Origin: Escherichia phage Mangalyan
Length of the DNA: 64,000 nt
Sequence record: OR449013
Strand: one strand, 5' to 3'
Shown here: positions 2,543 to 49,201 of the stretch, piece after piece
How the letters are laid out: the number at the start of each line of letters is the position of its first letter
Position numbering within the stretch: position 1 is the stretch's first letter
Notes under the pieces: generated by a model
Told to the model about the DNA's origin: nothing
The model's database searches: none
Seen by the model: the letters and a program-made list of their open reading frames with translations, nothing else
Position numbers and translations under genes: made by a program

Positions 2543-3156
2543 TGGATATTATTGTTCTTAACGCCCCACCTAGTAGTGGTAAGGATCACATTGCAGATCT
2601 CTTGTTGGAAGCTATTCCTAACTCACACCATCGTGAGGTTAAGGAGATGCTCTTCAGCGTGGCAATTAAGGCAGCTGGTGTAACTCCTCAACTCTGGAAT
2701 GCACTTTATGACCGCCACTACAAAGAAGAGCCTTGCCCTTTCTTAATGATAGACGGTAAGCATGTTTCTCCGCGAGAGTGGATGATCCATTGTAGTGAAA
2801 ATCTGATTAAACCTATCTTTGGTGAAGATGCTTTCGGTAAGGCCGCAGTCACATCCTTGAAGAAAGATTTCCCTAAAGGTAAAGGGGTTGTTGTTTACTC
2901 CGATGGTGGATTCAAAGAGGAGCTGGCATGCCTTAGTGAGTACGCATACAGCACAGGTGGAGATCTGTTGTTGTTCCGTATTCACCGTGTCGGATATGAC
3001 TGGGGAAATGATTCCAGAACCTATCTAAGTCTGGAAAAGAACGGAATAAAAGGGATTGAGTTCGATGTTGTAAACCCTGAAGGTGCACCTTGGGAGTGTG
3101 CATCGGAGATTGTGTGCAAGTATATTGATGCTAAAGAGGCCCAAGAAGAATGTTAA
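2542..3156 (+). CDS. deoxynucleoside monophosphate kinase-like (P-loop) protein
   Basis: SD GGAGG; N-terminal P-loop LNAPPSSGKD resembles the start of phage dNMP kinases. Confidence 0.5.
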   Translation: MDIIVLNAPPSSGKDHIADLLLEAIPNSHHREVKEMLFSVAIKAAGVTPQLWNALYDRHYKEEPCPFLMIDGKHVSPREWMIHCSENLIKPIFGEDAFGKAAVTSLKKDFPKGKGVVVYSDGGFKEELACLSEYAYSTGGDLLLFRIHRVGYDWGNDSRTYLSLEKNGIKGIEFDVVNPEGAPWECASEIVCKYIDAKEAQEEC

Positions 3157-3743
3157 TCGGAATTGATGTAGATTTGACACTGGTAGATTCAGGAACAGCA
3201 TGGTGGGAGTGGTTGGAGCGTTTGTATGGTCCAGCCAGTAAGACAGTCGCTAAACCTTCTAATGGACTGATGTATTACGATCTGTCAAAGTATTGGCCTG
3301 ATCGCCCCAAAGAAAACATCATAGGGCCTTTTGATTTCTGGAGTGACCCATTCCTCTACGACTTTCTTAAGCCTGAAGAGGGGGCTATTGAGGTTATGAA
3401 AGATTTGGTGGCTCGTGGTCACAAGCTTGCATTTATCTCGGTATGCAAGAAAGGTCACCTTGCATCTAAATCAAGGTTCTTAAAGCGTTGGACCAGTGAT
3501 TTTATGGATCTGGACGATCACACCCAGGGTCACGGCTTCTACGCCACACATTTCAAAGGAAATGTGGCTGTAGATGTTATAATTGACGACAGGCATGAAT
3601 ACCTTAACCAATTCGCTTCACGACCTGAAGTTATTAAAATCCTAAAAGATACGCCTTATGAGCAATTCGAGGAGTTAAAGGTCAGTGTTGACTATACCGC
3701 CAATAGCTGGTATAAAATAGGAAAGTTTTTAGAAGGTATTTGA
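3150..3743 (+). CDS. HAD-superfamily 5'-(deoxy)nucleotidase-like protein
   Basis: N-terminal GIDVDLTLVD matches HAD motif I DxDxT; later IIDDRHEY. Confidence 0.45.
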   Translation: MLIGIDVDLTLVDSGTAWWEWLERLYGPASKTVAKPSNGLMYYDLSKYWPDRPKENIIGPFDFWSDPFLYDFLKPEEGAIEVMKDLVARGHKLAFISVCKKGHLASKSRFLKRWTSDFMDLDDHTQGHGFYATHFKGNVAVDVIIDDRHEYLNQFASRPEVIKILKDTPYEQFEELKVSVDYTANSWYKIGKFLEGI

Positions 3744-29790: not shown

Positions 29791-31319
29791 CACACAATTA
29801 GTTGCCCGGCTAAAGTGCTGGGAGCACCCATAACACATCTTTCAACTAAATTTTCTACCACCACAATCACTTACCTCCCACACATGACTGTTTGCTTGTT
29901 TAGTGAGCAGTCATGCCTTGACATTCTTGCCTATCCTGATAAAATTAAGTTCTTCTCTTTTCTTTTACCGAGTAATTCGGGTTTTCTGTTCTCTTCGGTT
30001 TGAAGGGGTATGGAGATACACCTGAGTGAACAGGGTGAACAACCGAACCATTGGCTATGGCATTAGCATGGCGAAGCGGACGGGTGACGAAAGAGGGGCC
30101 GGAGGACACCAGTCACTGCCATATGATATATGGGTGATAACCTGAAGAGTCTGAATAAGTGTTTAAGTACCAGTCAGAGGAAAAGGTGAATGGTAGCCGA
30201 AGGGGGAGGGGGGTTACCTGCTTCTGTAAACATGCATCTGAAATACTACTTTAGATAACCTGAACCTGCCTTTCTGACAAATATTCCCTATTAAACTTGA
30301 ATTATTTATAGAAAATACCACAACACCACTTAAGTCTTTGATTTTACACACAAATCTTACAGATATTAAACCTCTCTATTTAACATACCTGTAACATATA
30401 CTATACTCCACCTGTCTGATCAATTTCCCCAACTACATCCCCATATTTTCCCTGTCTGTACTACCCCTGCCCCGCCGGGAGTCCCGTCATATCTGGCTTT
30501 CCAGCAAATATCACACCCACAAATATCATCACCTGAAGAGGGTTTCATCCCATAATACATGCCTTACCTGAAGAGCGCTTCATACACCACATAAATTTTT
30601 TAATTGACCCCCTCCCCGCCGCCGGAGAGGTTGGCTTTTCCCACACAGACCTGGAGAGTCAGCCAGAAATATCTGAAGAGGGTCTAGTTCTGCCCTGTCA
30701 TAAGCGGTAGCGACTGGAGTGCTGCTAGGCGGACGAAATGGGAATACTTCTCATTCTTATAACAATTCTCAAATATCGAGGCAGTGAGGCAAATTAATAG
30801 GTGAGGCCGTTCACACAGTGGCACAACATTTGCAACCTATCTTGTGGGATTGAATGAGAATACCTATCATTGTGAGAACTGTTATCATTACGGGCAATTT
30901 AACATAATACCCATTATGCGCACCACTGGCGATACATACAGGGATTGATAACATGGGTTACTGTTTACGCACATAACAATTATATTTCTTACTATTTGTG
31001 TGGGATATAGTTAGCAGCCGATAGATTAGATATTAACCTGCAGACTTCTGACCGTCCAGACGTCTAAACGCCCACACACCAAGGATTATACATACACTCC
31101 TGAATGTAAACAGGGCCGCAAAAATGCTACCATACAAGCTTGTAAATTTTTCATGCAGCACTTGACAAAGAGGAGAAAAACTTGTCTGACATAATGTGAC
31201 CTAACTGACACAACATGACACTTTTACACACCTATTAGTTTACACACTGGATTGTTTACATTCCTGATTGTTCACATGCTAACCATTTACATGATTGACT
31301 GTTTACACACCGATAATCA

Positions 31320-31339
31320 GCCATGCCATTCGTTTGCAT
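31320..31339 (+). repeat. 20-nt direct repeat GCCATGCCATTCGTTTGCAT (copy 1)
   Basis: identical 20-mer recurs at 31551..31570. Confidence 0.7.
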
Positions 31340-31397
31340 GACAATAATTATACATGACAATAATCGCACTGATCATAATTAGCATGACATAATATAA

Positions 31398-31437
31398 AAG
31401 CAGGGCAACTATTAGCAGATCTATAGTTGCCTTGCTT
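31398..31437. repeat. inverted repeat, 15-nt arms around a 10-nt spacer containing AGATCT
   Basis: AAGCAGGGCAACTAT ... ATAGTTGCCTTGCTT (1 mismatch); GGCAACTAT/ATAGTTGCC recurs at ~31464 and ~31563. Confidence 0.65.
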
Positions 31438-31550
31438 GTTATGTCATGATTAACTAAATACAAGGCAACTATGATCTGATTAATAGTTTGCAGACAAACT
31501 ATCACGGGGGTGATGGTTACTGCTTTTATATTATGTCGCGACTCCGTCGC

Positions 31551-31570
31551 GCCATGCCATTCGTTTGCAT
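31551..31570 (+). repeat. 20-nt direct repeat GCCATGCCATTCGTTTGCAT (copy 2)
   Basis: identical to 31320..31339. Confidence 0.7.
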
Positions 31571-32176
31571 AGTTGCCTTATTGTTACAGATAAAATAATT
31601 GTATTGTTAATTATTTCTTATCTTTCTATTAGTCATCTAATGATTTCAGTTAATATAGTAACGTACAGTAAACATTAGACGACTAAAGATTTCTATGCTT
31701 ATGGTAACCTAACGTGACAATTCCAGACTGTTTACGAAAAATGTTGACACCTGGGCCGATTTATGTTATGCAGTTTACACGAATAATTATTTTATGCAGG
31801 TATTGACTATTCCGTTATTCTATGGTTGGAATAAATGCTTAGCAGGCTATAGAATGGCGAGCGTACGTAAATTCTGAGATCTGGCGGCTATAGTTATACT
31901 CGATTTTTCACGTAGAAAACGCTTTTGTAGTTATGTAAGTGTATGACTTATAAAGTTGACAAGCTATTGAATATATGCATCAGGTTAAATTTTGTGCAAA
32001 TGCTGCATTACGTGCAATTTTGGAAGGAAAAACGTGTAAAAATGGCCCTGCTACCACACAATGAAAAATTATGCAATAGTTATTTTATATGTATGTTTGT
32101 ACAGTGTGTGGGATTGATGGCTCGTCAATTATTCCACTTGCCAGGTAGGGCCGTTTATGGTAGGGGGAAGAGCAGA

Positions 32177-44920: not shown

Positions 44921-45112
44921 TCACTTGTTGTTAATAAGTTCTAAAACTTTCTGTCTTACTTTGTCAAGGTCTGTGGATTCAAAAACTGTACGGTATCCCC
45001 AACTTTGCCCATAGGAGTGACTGCAATCCCCGTAGCACCATTGCTCAATTTGATAGTATTCAAGGAACGGGTGCTGTCTAACTATGATACCATCTCGGTT
45101 AAAAATTACCAT
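44921..45112 (-). CDS. hypothetical protein
   Basis: 63-aa ORF. Confidence 0.45.
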   Translation of the reverse strand: MVIFNRDGIIVRQHPFLEYYQIEQWCYGDCSHSYGQSWGYRTVFESTDLDKVRQKVLELINNK

Positions 45113-45175
45113 AATACATCGCTCTCTGTTAGTTTATGCGTATATTATACACTGCAGTTTTCAGATGTCAACCTC

Positions 45176-45370
45176 TTACAGATTGCTCCAGTACAATCGG
45201 CATTTACATTTTGGGCAATGAGGTTCTTTTATATAATAACCATCAGTCTTTGGAACACTTTTTGGTGCAGTTTTAAGATTGTACCTGGTAAAACATCGGA
45301 AGCAGGTTACCTCTCCCACCTGTTGATCGTTGATCCACTCACCAGAGTAAAGTTCTTTCTTGTTTCTCAT
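45176..45370 (-). CDS. small zinc-ribbon protein
   Basis: ATG 45370 with SD GGGAGAG; CFRCF...CPKCKC. Confidence 0.45.
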   Translation of the reverse strand: MRNKKELYSGEWINDQQVGEVTCFRCFTRYNLKTAPKSVPKTDGYYIKEPHCPKCKCRLYWSNL

Positions 45371-45602
45371 AATTCTCTCCCAAATCATCTGCAATCTTAT
45401 ACCAAAATCTCCAGCCAGAAAGCACACGGGAACACTTTGAGGATTGAATCTTTACTTGGCTCGGAAGTTCTTTTTCCGTATGATAGGTAGAAATACCCTC
45501 CTGCAGATTCGAATATAGCTCCTTCGGTTGTATCTACCACAGCAAGAATTAAGATTTTAGTCTCCACAGTGCTCTCCTCTCTTAGTTGTTGTGGAAACTA
45601 TA

Positions 45603-46118
45603 TCACCTCAGAAGATGGTCGTCAACACTTTTGTACTCTACTACAACCACATCAATATCTGTGGTTGCAAGATTAATTACATCTTCTACATGTTCCCACT
45701 TTAGACCTCCAATACCGCATCCGATTTTAGGAATGTAGAACGGCAATGACATACCTTTGAATACCTCGTTGACTCGCTCAAAACCTTTCATGATTGAGAA
45801 GTATTCAGCATTGGGCCCTGGGTAGAACTGGGTATACAGGTTGATTCCATATACGACCCTGGCCTTGGCAAAATGCTCCCAACAAGAAAACATACCCAGC
45901 TTGTCTAGATTACCATAAGCAGTCTCTTTGTCGGCTGCCAGTGCTTGAGGGAACTCACGGGCAATATCTTTCGCTATACCTGCACCCATTGTGTGAAAGC
46001 AGTTACAACCGTGGATCATGTGGCCTGACCCTTTCTTGAAAATGGAGATTAGATCTCCCTTTACAGTATCAATAATCACGGTATTCCAGCTCCTCTTCTG
46101 CAATTTCCAAAAACTCAT
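45603..46118 (-). CDS. macrodomain protein, TARG1/OARD1-like ADP-ribose hydrolase (start uncertain, 46076-46178)
   Basis: VKGDLISIF...HMIHGCNCFHTMGAGIAKDI and PKIGCGIGGLKWEHVEDVI align by eye with human OARD1 (YVKGDLFACP...AHCISEDCRMGAGIA; PRIGCGLDRLQWENV); 5' end overlaps upstream gene. Confidence 0.7.
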   Translation of the reverse strand: MSFWKLQKRSWNTVIIDTVKGDLISIFKKGSGHMIHGCNCFHTMGAGIAKDIAREFPQALAADKETAYGNLDKLGMFSCWEHFAKARVVYGINLYTQFYPGPNAEYFSIMKGFERVNEVFKGMSLPFYIPKIGCGIGGLKWEHVEDVINLATTDIDVVVVEYKSVDDHLLR

Positions 46119-46494
46119 CCCAACCCTGTGGCATATTTGAGTTGCCGAAGTGGCTTTCGTAGTAGAGATTTTTACCACTTGGAAGGTAGAAATCTGTTAC
46201 CTCATAGAATCCACAATCGTCGCACTCACCTTCTTCAAACTTGGCCTCAACCTTAATACCGAGGAAGGTGAAAAGTTTATGGATATCTTCAGTTTCGAAC
46301 TCCCAGTGAATGTTGTTTTCCGCATCGGTGTAGAACTGGATCAGCAGACCATTGTCCAGTTTACCAAAATACTCTGTGAAGTAACTTCCTTCCCAGAAAT
46401 CTTTATGACAAATAATATCCATGCGTTTGCCCATAATAATGGTGTGAGCGTTTTGGGCATCGTCACGAATCAGTTTTGGCATTTCATAGGTCAT
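46069..46494 (-). CDS. hypothetical acidic protein
   Basis: 141-aa ORF, SD GGAGAA; overlaps macrodomain gene start. Confidence 0.5.
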   Translation of the reverse strand: MTYEMPKLIRDDAQNAHTIIMGKRMDIICHKDFWEGSYFTEYFGKLDNGLLIQFYTDAENNIHWEFETEDIHKLFTFLGIKVEAKFEEGECDDCGFYEVTDFYLPSGKNLYYESHFGNSNMPQGWDEFLEIAEEELEYRDY

Positions 46495-46562
46495 CTTAGT
46501 TCTCCGGGTTCAACAGGTGGTGGCGCTATAGGAAGATCATAAAACATGGCTATCACATCCTC

Positions 46563-46760
46563 TTACACAGGAATTGCTTCAAATAGACCGTTATCTATAC
46601 CGTCCTTCAGATAGAGATTATATTCTATGTCGGTATCTGTATAAAGGGCAGCATCCAGCATTCTATCTGTGAGTCCATCCATCGGGTGGAGAAACCACCA
46701 CCCACGCCAGTCAAAGTAACAGCCTGGTGCATCTTCTCTTACACGGATTCGATAAATCAT
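46563..46760 (-). CDS. hypothetical Trp-rich protein
   Basis: 65-aa ORF, SD AGGAGG. Confidence 0.45.
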   Translation of the reverse strand: MIYRIRVREDAPGCYFDWRGWWFLHPMDGLTDRMLDAALYTDTDIEYNLYLKDGIDNGLFEAIPV

Positions 46761-46855
46761 GGGCAGTGGCCTCCTGTTAGTTATACATCCCAGTTTTCTT
46801 CGTTCATCACGTCCTCCCGTCTATGAAGTTATAATTGCACACCTTTCAACCTGTG

Positions 46856-47272
46856 TCAACAGAAAACTTCAACAAACTCTTCCACAGTTTTAATGTCGTG
46901 GGAAAAAGGTTTACGGCTATAACGGGCAATAGCACTATCAACCACCGCTCGGTACTCAAGATCTTCAGAGTATTTCATGAAGCATTGCAGTGTTTCTGGA
47001 CAGATAGCTAGATAGCTCCACCACCCTTCATCAGATTGATAGTCAAAGCCCATGCTCTCCAACCATGAAGCATATACGCCTGCACCTTCCAGCCAGTGAG
47101 TATTTTCATCCAGAAACTTGTTAACAGACATGTGAGCTTCTAAGCACTTGTCCAGCTCTTTTCCGTTAACCAGCCACGCACTAACTGTGGCGCATCCAAG
47201 GTCTACAGATTGAGTTGACAGGTTGTATTGGTCATAGTTCTCAGGTTTAACAATGATATCTTCTAATGTCAT
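46856..47272 (-). CDS. hypothetical protein
   Basis: 138-aa ORF, SD AAGGAG. Confidence 0.5.
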   Translation of the reverse strand: MTLEDIIVKPENYDQYNLSTQSVDLGCATVSAWLVNGKELDKCLEAHMSVNKFLDENTHWLEGAGVYASWLESMGFDYQSDEGWWSYLAICPETLQCFMKYSEDLEYRAVVDSAIARYSRKPFSHDIKTVEEFVEVFC

Positions 47273-47290
47273 TTTTCAGATCTCCTTATA

Positions 47291-47319
47291 CAAAAATGCC
47301 CCACCCTTTCGGGCAGGGC
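47291..47319 (-). terminator. rho-independent terminator (copy 1 of an identical pair)
   Basis: on - strand GCCCTGCCC-gaaa-GGGTGGGGC (9 bp incl. 2 G.U) followed by ATTTTTG; the same stem has A.C mismatches if read on +. Confidence 0.7.
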
Positions 47320-47334
47320 TATGTTAGTTAGGTG

Positions 47335-47958
47335 CTAAAAGTATTCATAGAGGTATCCATCGGGGGCTGGAATTTTTTCATGAATGTAGTAATCAACACA
47401 TATTCCGGTTTCTCTTCTACAAGAATTGTGGGATACCCATTCTTTAAGAACGTTTCCATTCATGTCCAGCCTTCTTACATTTTTACACCGTCTACCGCTG
47501 GTGCTTCTATGCAACAGAATATCCTCCGTCTGCTTGTCTTTATTTTCTCCCCAGGTCGTTAAACGGATATTATCAAAAGAGTACCCTTTGAAATCATCTA
47601 TCCTGTCACAAGAAGGCTTTTTCCTTTTGTCGTATCCGCTGGCTACCCACTGATCATACAACTCTTTGTAACCGTTCAGGTATAGCCACTCCTTAAACTC
47701 TTTTTTGGTGTAAGTCGGAGGAGGGTGGCCTCTTTGCTTGCTGTTGCACTTTTGAGCCTTGTACAGCACGCGTATTACACCTTTTTCTGAAGAGTCGTGG
47801 GAAAACCTGTCAGCCTCCCTGCTGGCCTTCTTGCAACACTCTTTGCACTTATTAAGATGACCGTCAGACATCTTTGGGTGTTTGTAGAACTCGGAGAGGT
47901 TTTTCACCTCTCCGCACTTGATGCACCTCTTACAATGCGTGGATTCTGCTTTTTCCAT
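47335..47958 (-). CDS. zinc-finger HNH-like endonuclease (putative homing endonuclease)
   Basis: N-terminal CKRCIKCG...[10 protein letters not shown]; later [26 protein letters not shown] resembles an HNH core; ATG 47958 assumed. Confidence 0.45.
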
Positions 47959-49201
47959 ATTGCAAACCCACCGGAGCGAAAGGTATGTCATCACAGAAGT
48001 CATACTGTGCTGGATTCTGATCCATCGGGTCATCTTCCTCGTCATTTACAGGAGGAGCGTCTACAGTGTTTTGCTGTGGAGCTGCTTCCTGTTTGGCAGC
48101 TTGAGGTTCTTGATGGTCAGTGGACCCAGCACCGTTCTTGATCCAATCGTACAACGGCTCAGCCAGATTAGTCAAGACATCTTTTGCTTCTGCAGTAATT
48201 GCCGCTGCAAAATCATCAACTTTCGTTTTCTTGTCAATACGGCGACAAGCGTTCAACACCGCATTGCCGACACTGGCACCTACTTCATCTTCAGTTCGGT
48301 TGGTGGCTTGAGCATACTCTTTCTTAAGCTCGATGGTGACTACGTGCAGTGTTTTAGCCACGCCTAGTGGGTCGTCTACCTTAAACCCACGATCCAGGAT
48401 GATCTGCAACGCATTGATGCTATGCCCCGTCTCCACACCAATAGGGTCGTAAGAGGATTTACGCTTGCCACCAGGGCCTTGAGTGCCGTTCTCTGCCTTA
48501 GGTGGGTAGGCTTTGAAACCACTGATAATGTTTCCGGTGTCTTTGTCCACAATGGCTGCAACACGACCGCCTACCACCAGGTCTTTAAGCTGCTCATCAG
48601 TTACAACCATAGCACCTTCGCCAATCTTGTGGTCATTTACAGTAACCACGTTGCCAACAATCTGAGTCACATCACCATAGATGCGTAAAACGTCCTGATT
48701 GGCATTCTGCTGAGGTTTCTGCTTCTGGCCTTGTGATTGTGCACCTTGTTGCTGTTTTTGCTGCTGAGTCGCTGCTGGAGCCTCTCCTGCGCCCAGCTTA
48801 ACCATCTTAGCCAGTGAGCCTTTGTAGTAGGTCTTACCGTTATGCTCGTTTGCCTTCAAAGGGATATTTACGATCCATCCTGGCGTTACGGTTTCCCACT
48901 TGTCATCAATCTTAACAGAGACAGAGTCTTGATGACCCGGTTTAAGCAGTTTATCACCCATGCTGATCCAGACTTCTTCACCACCTTGAAGCAGGTTATC
49001 AGAGGAATCCAGTTCAGAAATCAGTAAAGAGATGGTGTGGCTGGACTCAATTTTCTTACCTTGCCACACAGTGGTTTTAATACCTGTTGTAGGATCAGCA
49101 CCTTTGATAGGCTTGATGCTGACGCGTTTAATCATGCCGTGAGCCAGTAAAACAGTTTCACGCGGATTCATCGGGTTAGCGAATTGTTGAATAACGCTCA
49201 T
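47930..49201 (-). CDS. SSB-like protein with acidic C-terminal tail
   Basis: 423 aa; Gln-rich linker; acidic tail [22 protein letters not shown] resembles the SSB C-terminal DDDIPF tip (frame continues 16 aa beyond); SD AAGGAGA. Confidence 0.4.

Follow-up and report, generated by a model that had tools for sequence, protein, structure and literature searches.

A minus-strand gene in the window (the whole 64,000-nucleotide stretch of phage DNA analysed here) encodes a stand-alone macrodomain protein which, judging from its relatives, is probably a catalytically competent ADP-ribosyl-glycohydrolase of the Tk.4/AdfM lineage that erases DarT2 marks from phage DNA. Homology leads us to infer that its substrate is thymidine-ADP-ribose on DNA and its target DarTG2. 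The initial annotation had proposed the stand-alone phage macrodomain as a candidate eraser of ADP-ribosylation, and the proposal gains support from homology to T4 Tk.4/AdfM, which is needed on DarTG2 hosts. The idea is not new, since genes of this kind were published in 2025-2026 and relatives already carry macro domain annotations (the GenBank labels in some records read 'macro domain' or 'Poa1p-like').

Matches to phage records identify the window as part of an rV5-like E. coli phage of the genus Vequintavirus, across which the macrodomain gene is kept. The 2.3 kb surrounding the gene is 98.3% identical to the BASEL phage JeffSchatz (Bas55) and others, and at least 80% of this region is covered in 115 phage records. 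Sixteen GenBank records labelled 'Campylobacter phage' (approximately 135 kb; C15 and A12a are examples) have about 97% identity to positions 45000-47300 of the window, which suggests mislabelled hosts or contaminating coliphages. The gene, its start and a variable site near its end are located as follows.

45603 to 46079, minus strand: macrodomain coding sequence of the Tk.4/AdfM type, 158 aa plus stop, assigned from the ORF, Pfam, PHROG, PADLOC and homology to T4 Tk.4
46077 to 46095, minus strand: GTG start (46077-46079) with a GAGGAG Shine-Dalgarno (46090-46095), inside the 3' end of the upstream ORF
45629 to 45632, minus strand: run of four A residues (A4), A5 in relatives, from a DNA alignment with four relatives

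The stop codon occupies 45603-45605. At the other end, the gene had originally been started at the ATG at 46116-46118, but this codon is CTG in two relatives and the 13 residues it would add are found in no homologue. We replaced it with the GTG at 46079 because that codon is conserved in all four aligned relatives, as is the GAGGAG 10 nt upstream, because it is the start chosen by the GenBank annotators in relatives, and because it fits the N-terminus MIxxTVKGDL of the family alignment. Shortening of the A-run by one base changes the C-terminus from EYKKC-stop in relatives to EYKSVDDHLLR-stop in the window, so that the terminal KC becomes SVDDHLLR. The altered end lies beyond the final conserved strand of the macrodomain, and the A4 run may be either a true variant or a homopolymer sequencing error.

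The TARG1-like blocks first noticed by eye in this minus-strand ORF are present as KGDL, HGCNCFHTMGAGIA and PKIGCGIGGLKWEHV, and the protein also contains NLYTQFYPGPNAEY. The profile search that had been suggested as a check gave a match to Pfam Macro (PF01661) above the curated cut-off (25.7 bits versus 22, E=1.2e-5, profile positions 1-117 of 118), and PHROG 335 matched with E=6.6e-61. The macrodomain match is far above chance, and the profile scores, together with the BLASTP scores given below, exclude a chance resemblance. Both available DarG models align through their N-terminal macrodomain half only: the PADLOC model at E=7e-13 over profile positions 3-144 of 329, and the NCBIfam equivalog NF048014 at 46.1 bits (cut-off 250, E=4e-12) over positions 2-145 of 338. 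From the sequence-profile matches to solved macrodomains, a three-layer alpha/beta/alpha macro fold is predicted.

The lineage of the protein was examined in a search space of 5.8 billion proteins, which yielded 378 homologues. Most are approximately 150 aa long, many are on phage-sized contigs, and one carries the name Tk.4 from its source. By tblastn, 2835 of 50,697 phage records contain a homologue, which in T4-like phages sits at a single place per genome, at tk.4. In a direct BLASTP comparison with T4 Tk.4, itself a stand-alone phage protein of about 155 aa, 60 of 155 residues are identical end to end (39%; 66% positives, E=4e-44) with no large gaps. The two proteins have the same motif set, HGCNCFHTMGxG(I/V)A, NLYTQFxPGPNxEY and P(K/R)IGxGIG, including the glutamine of N-x-Y-T-Q, and have all active-site residues in common. 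Each gene sits among small accessory genes in a virulent myovirus of E. coli. The phages themselves belong to different groups, Straboviridae for T4 and Vequintavirinae for the window, and the neighbours differ as well, tk.4 lying next to the genes vs and tk.3, whereas the window gene has a 141-aa orphan upstream.

The closest relative outside the Vequintavirinae is encoded in the Krischvirus UPWr_E1 (positions 3001-3456), where its gene fills the tk.4 slot, flanked by regB and tk. As it shares 68% identity with the window protein and only 44% with T4 Tk.4, the sequences suggest that the macrodomain gene has been exchanged horizontally between Krischvirus-like and rV5-like E. coli myovirus families. 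We found no compositional mark of recent transfer around the macrodomain gene, where the GC content (0.42-0.45) is like that of the flanks. A chromosomal homologue in Pelagimonas also stands alone, with no adjoining darT.

To identify residues involved in catalysis, equivalences were drawn from HMMER and MAFFT alignments, with a family alignment of 69 sequences. Searched against the PDB, the family profile matched SCO6735 (5e3b, 3.4e-15) and BT1257 (2FG1, 5e-15) best, followed by Mycobacterium tuberculosis DarG (5m3i, 1.1e-13), TARG1 (4j5r, 1.2e-13) and yeast Poa1p (6lfu, 3.3e-12). The top 15 PDB sequences comprise SCO6735, BT1257, DarG, TARG1, Poa1p and 7omu (E values from 3e-15 to 2e-9), and nsp3 macrodomains reach only 7e-3. 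On these scores, the closest solved relatives belong to the ALC1-like class; they are not members of the MacroD, PARG or viral nsp3 classes. Fourteen positions are invariant in all 69 sequences (G24, N26, C27, M31, G34, A36, D50, N80, Y82, T83, Q84, P117, G120 and G122), and the motif N-x-[YF]-T-Q is found in 116 of the 120 best homologues. The main elements of the predicted active site are encoded at the following positions.

46002 to 46004, minus strand: codon of Asn26, equivalent to DarG Asn22 and SCO6735 Asn27, invariant in 69 of 69
45828 to 45830, minus strand: codon of Gln84 in the N-x-Y-T-Q motif, equivalent to SCO6735 Gln85 and at the position of TARG1 Lys84 and DarG Lys80, invariant in 69 of 69
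45708 to 45731, minus strand: diphosphate-binding loop P117-K-I-G120-C-G122-I-G124, with P117, G120 and G122 invariant, aligned to SCO6735 Gly126 and Gly128

In both the profile and the joint alignments, neither member of the catalytic dyad of TARG1, Lys84 and Asp125, is present. Gln84 of the window protein aligns with TARG1 Lys84, DarG Lys80 and PhiKZ gp104 Lys78, and the site of Asp125 is occupied by Gly124 (Ala or Gly in 69 of 69 sequences). The catalytic lysine of DarG is thus not kept, whereas its Asn22 is, as N26. In contrast, the equivalents of SCO6735 Gln85, Asn27, Gly126 and Gly128 are all there (Q84, N26, G120 and G122); SCO6735 and BT1257 have in common with the window protein the Gln at the catalytic-Lys position, the conserved Asn and the Gly-x-Gly, although they are only 21-27% identical to it and are bacterial chromosomal genes, not phage genes. 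A mobile loop that exceeds the DarG/TARG1 loop by five residues, with Lys89, is a trait of the SCO6735 subclass (PMC9411070). By alignment, SCO6735 and BT1257 have this insertion and the window protein does not; the loop that follows its Gln84 (FYPGPNAEY) has the DarG/TARG1 length. Lacking both the DarG/TARG1 lysine and the long loop of SCO6735, the window protein fully matches neither characterised active-site type. By its sequence, the phage clade is a Gln-type enzyme with a loop of DarG/TARG1 length, ALC1-like without being strictly TARG1, DarG or SCO6735.

The initial label 'TARG1/OARD1-like' therefore holds for the structural class but not for the active site, which has Gln84 and Gly124 in place of the TARG1 dyad and resembles SCO6735 and Tk.4. 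Human TARG1/OARD1 (4J5R/4J5S) belongs to the same class and fold family, with similar GDL, MGAGIA and PRIGCG..W loop motifs, and also cleaves T-ADPr DNA (PMC9411070), but has Ser where the window protein has Asn26. Loss of the catalytic residues in alignment had been named as a finding that would speak against an eraser. Residues are indeed lost, yet the criterion was itself wrong, because SCO6735, a very active enzyme, carries this Gln and depends on it, and T4 Tk.4 has it too. SCO6735 outpaces DarG and TARG1 in stripping thymidine-linked ADP-ribose off DarT-modified DNA, and it rescues cells from DarT (PMC9411070). On T-ADPr DNA its Q85A mutant is dead, N27S is nearly dead and G128E is reduced (PMC9411070); the roles of the Asn in SCO6735 and DarG are described in PMC9411070 and PMC13309987. 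The ALC1-like members tested, SCO6735, DarG and TARG1, all reverse thymidine ADP-ribosylation, termed 'a unifying function' (PMC9411070).

The link to DarTG2 comes from phage genetics. In a HIDEN-SEQ preprint of November 2025, tk.4 was the sole significant T4 match in a transposon screen on a DarTG2 host, and a clean T4 tk.4 knockout was sensitised to DarTG2, for which the gene was renamed adfM (anti-DarT factor Macrodomain); support for T4 AdfM is genetic only, and in preprint form (10.1101/2025.11.20.689424). The anti-DarTG2 phenotype belongs to T4 Tk.4, and for the window protein it is predicted by homology. Independently, PhiKZ gp104 was also named AdfM: it removes DarT2-made ADP-ribose from an oligonucleotide in vitro (PMC13309987, a 2026 Cell Reports article), and gp104 deletion mutants suffer multi-log restriction by DarTG2 (PMC13309987). 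The biochemistry of phage AdfM thus comes from gp104, a Lys-type protein with an identity of 21-22% to the window protein. Given that low identity and the DarG-type Lys of gp104, two phage macrodomain lineages share the name AdfM, with the window protein placed by sequence in that of Tk.4. Outside this gene family, Bas60-62, which are other Vequintavirinae, encode the NADAR protein AdfN against DarTG1 (PMC11825919), so that DarTG pressure on the Vequintavirinae is documented. A literature search for Vequintavirus together with DarTG2 returned nothing past the HIDEN-SEQ and AdfN papers.

DarG (M. tuberculosis 5M3I; T. aquaticus 5M31/5M3E) and PhiKZ gp104 have the ALC1-like class and the Asn in common with the window protein, and the reaction predicted for the window protein is the same as theirs, removal of T-ADPr from ssDNA. 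They differ from it in the catalytic Lys (K80 and K78, respectively, versus Gln). DarG also has a C-terminal DarT-binding domain with no counterpart in the window protein, which covers positions 2-145 of 338 of NF048014 only, and DarG adjoins darT, whereas the neighbours of the window macrodomain are small phage orphans. PhiKZ gp104 is further set apart by its import into the phage nucleus. In the mechanism we propose, infection of a DarTG2 host would free the DarT2 toxin, which would put ADP-ribose on thymidines in single-stranded phage DNA and so block replication. The phage macrodomain would hold the ADP-ribose in its glycine-rich cleft, where Asn26 and Gln84 would position the distal ribose, and would hydrolyse the thymidine-ribose bond. 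With unmodified DNA restored in this way, the macrodomain would in effect be an orphan antitoxin.

Three other readings of the protein were weighed against the removal of DarT2 marks. The best-surviving of these, which we nevertheless consider unlikely, is an active ADP-ribosylhydrolase whose main substrate is protein- or RNA-linked ADP-ribose made by other host ART toxins or defences, and not DarT2-modified DNA. SCO6735, the best solved match, also cleaves glutamate-linked protein ADP-ribose (PMC9411070), so the substrate range is not readable from sequence. ADP-ribosyltransferase defences beyond DarTG exist, CmdTAC for example, and an identity of 39% to Tk.4 leaves room for a shifted substrate preference, although the active-site residues are all common to the two proteins. 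With regard to RNA, SCO6735 is discussed in connection with RNA ends in PMC11833690, but the passages on this are inconsistent with one another; the enzyme was inactive on 2'-OH RNA ADP-ribosylation and, according to the results text, on 5'-phosphate ADP-ribosylation. The sole in vivo phenotype in the Tk.4 lineage is specific to DarTG2 (10.1101/2025.11.20.689424). Separately, and as a long shot, the phage Tk.4 clade, with its Gln site and short loop, may constitute a hydrolase subclass that differs in mechanism and acts on a substrate range of its own.

Much less probable is a mainly non-catalytic role, in which the protein binds or blocks DarT, or sequesters ADP-ribose or NAD-derived molecules. 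There is precedent in the catalytically dead SCO6735 Q85A, which still inhibits DarT in vitro by 'interaction-inhibition' (PMC9411070), and in other anti-DarT factors, AdfA and AdfB, which are stoichiometric binders. Against these stands the invariance of Asn26, Gln84 and the glycine loops over 69 diverse homologues, which argues for selection on catalysis; the absence of a counterpart to the DarT-binding domain of DarG also disfavours such a role. Slightly weaker still is the case for a metabolite enzyme, an ADP-ribose-1''-phosphate phosphatase or O-acetyl-ADP-ribose deacetylase, as the PHROG 335 label (phosphatase), the GenBank and JGI labels (phosphatase, Poa1p-like, Appr-1-p processing) and the Poa1p match would have it, because those labels are passed down from the superfamily, Poa1p scores below SCO6735, DarG and TARG1, no phage pathway making Appr-1''-p or OAADPr is evident among the 85 ORFs of the window, and the phenotype of the T4 orthologue is defence-specific.

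An eraser of DarT2 marks would be expected to matter only under certain conditions, and both transposon data and natural variants fit an accessory, conditional counter-defence gene. Gene order in Bas54, as given in the HIDEN-SEQ supplementary tables, mirrors that of the window, with an essential 1272-nt gene, a homing endonuclease and then genes of 417, 198, 426 and 459 nt (10.1101/2025.11.20.689424). The 459-nt gene, bas54_0092, is the macrodomain orthologue; it carries insertions at 31 of 31 TA sites and is non-essential on K-12, a host without DarTG, just as T4 Tk.4 is non-essential on K-12. Its 426-nt neighbour bas54_0091 is likewise non-essential, with insertions at 21 of 23 TA sites (10.1101/2025.11.20.689424). 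Among the 120 best homologues of the macrodomain, four are broken alleles, including deletion and frameshift variants. One 121-aa protein (P0016, on a 135.5-kb contig) consists of the first 55 residues of the neighbouring 141-aa ORF fused in frame to the macrodomain from residue 84 onward. The 10-nt direct repeat CCAGTTCTAC is found both in the 141-aa ORF (46339-46330) and in the macrodomain gene (45831-45822), and a 508-nt deletion from one copy to the other accounts for the fusion, a natural variant that destroys both genes.

In the window, the macrodomain gene lies within a run of approximately 55 small minus-strand ORFs, downstream of rIIA/B, a helicase, methyltransferases, a primase-helicase and the DNA polymerase. 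Because the replication genes precede it on the same strand, its status as an early gene is plausible. No ADP-ribosyltransferase or NADAR was found among the 85 ORFs of the 64-kb window (out of a genome of about 136 kb) at E<3e-5. Three features lie upstream of the gene.

46069 to 46494, minus strand: acidic ORF of 141 aa that shares 11 nt with the start of the macrodomain gene
46831 to 46859, minus strand: sigma-70-like promoter match, TTGACA-17-AATTAT with TG (consensus match only)
47298 to 47319, minus strand: terminator-like GC-rich hairpin with T-run, upstream of the unit (consensus match only)

The promoter (46859-46831) and the hairpin (47319-47298) may bound a small transcription unit made up of the 65-aa, 141-aa and macrodomain ORFs; in the promoter and terminator scan from which they come, match counts were not above those in shuffled sequence. 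Further upstream, an HNH/treble-clef zinc-finger ORF resembling homing endonucleases (47335-48045, minus strand) overlaps the 3' end of a gene at 47930-49201 whose Bas54 orthologue is essential. This ORF is present in the window, in bov10K2 (as 'endonuclease VII') and in Bas54, and absent at the site in JeffSchatz and A51.2, a patchy occurrence that makes it look like a mobile insertion.

The overlap between the 141-aa ORF and the macrodomain ORF, and the acidity of the 141-aa protein, both described at the outset, are real. With the GTG start, the overlap is 11 nt long (GTGATTATTGA), an arrangement typical of translational coupling, which is plausible here. The protein has a pI of 4.33, and neighbouring small ORFs are equally acidic (pI 4.3-4.8). 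It belongs to PHROG 8157 (labelled function unknown) and falls in four protein clusters only, all from Vequintavirus-like sources; it matches no known fold, searches of Pfam, the PDB, PADLOC and NCBIfam gave nothing, and no homologue was detected outside the Vequintavirinae. The cluster, PDB, PADLOC and NCBIfam searches found nothing tying it functionally to the macrodomain, and a functional partnership of the two is pure speculation. It would be a long shot for the 141-aa protein to supply the other half of the counter-defence, as a partner that binds the toxin or confers specificity, either forming with the macrodomain a split-DarG-like pair of eraser and DarT blocker or extending the eraser to another ADP-ribosylating defence.

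Elsewhere in the window, an ORF-poor gap of approximately 2 kb (29870-31943) lies where the plus- and minus-strand gene blocks converge. Within it, repeats cluster at 31290-31600. A hairpin with arms AAGCAGGGCAACTAT and ATAGTTGCCTTGCTT (31398-31437) has related copies, a direct repeat of 20 nt starts without mismatch at 31320 and again at 31551, and inverted arms of 18 nt, also exact, occupy 31386-31403 and 31520-31537. Searches of the gap gave no tRNA and no Rfam match. It appears to be the Bas54 intergenic region without tolerated transposon insertions in HIDEN-SEQ, and may function as an origin or in regulation. On the plus strand, from 1 to 29000, genes for nucleotide metabolism form a block: ribonucleotide reductases of classes I and III with activase, ThyX, glutaredoxin, PhoH and a 5'-nucleotidase. 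Also encoded there are an S30AE protein resembling ribosome hibernation factors and a protein with a Clp protease domain.

If the window protein does erase DarT2 marks, the PHROG 335 entries now labelled 'phosphatase' or 'hypothetical protein' could be renamed, and the experimentally anchored AdfM family would extend past T4. The question raised is how Gln-type, short-loop macrodomains cleave thymidine-linked ADP-ribose without the lysine of DarG and TARG1. Vequintavirus comprises broad-host-range E. coli phages that are used in therapy and biocontrol work, and the whole genus would have a built-in eraser against DarTG2. Together with the NADAR eraser of Bas60-62 against DarTG1, this would mean that selection by DarTG recurs in this group of phages.
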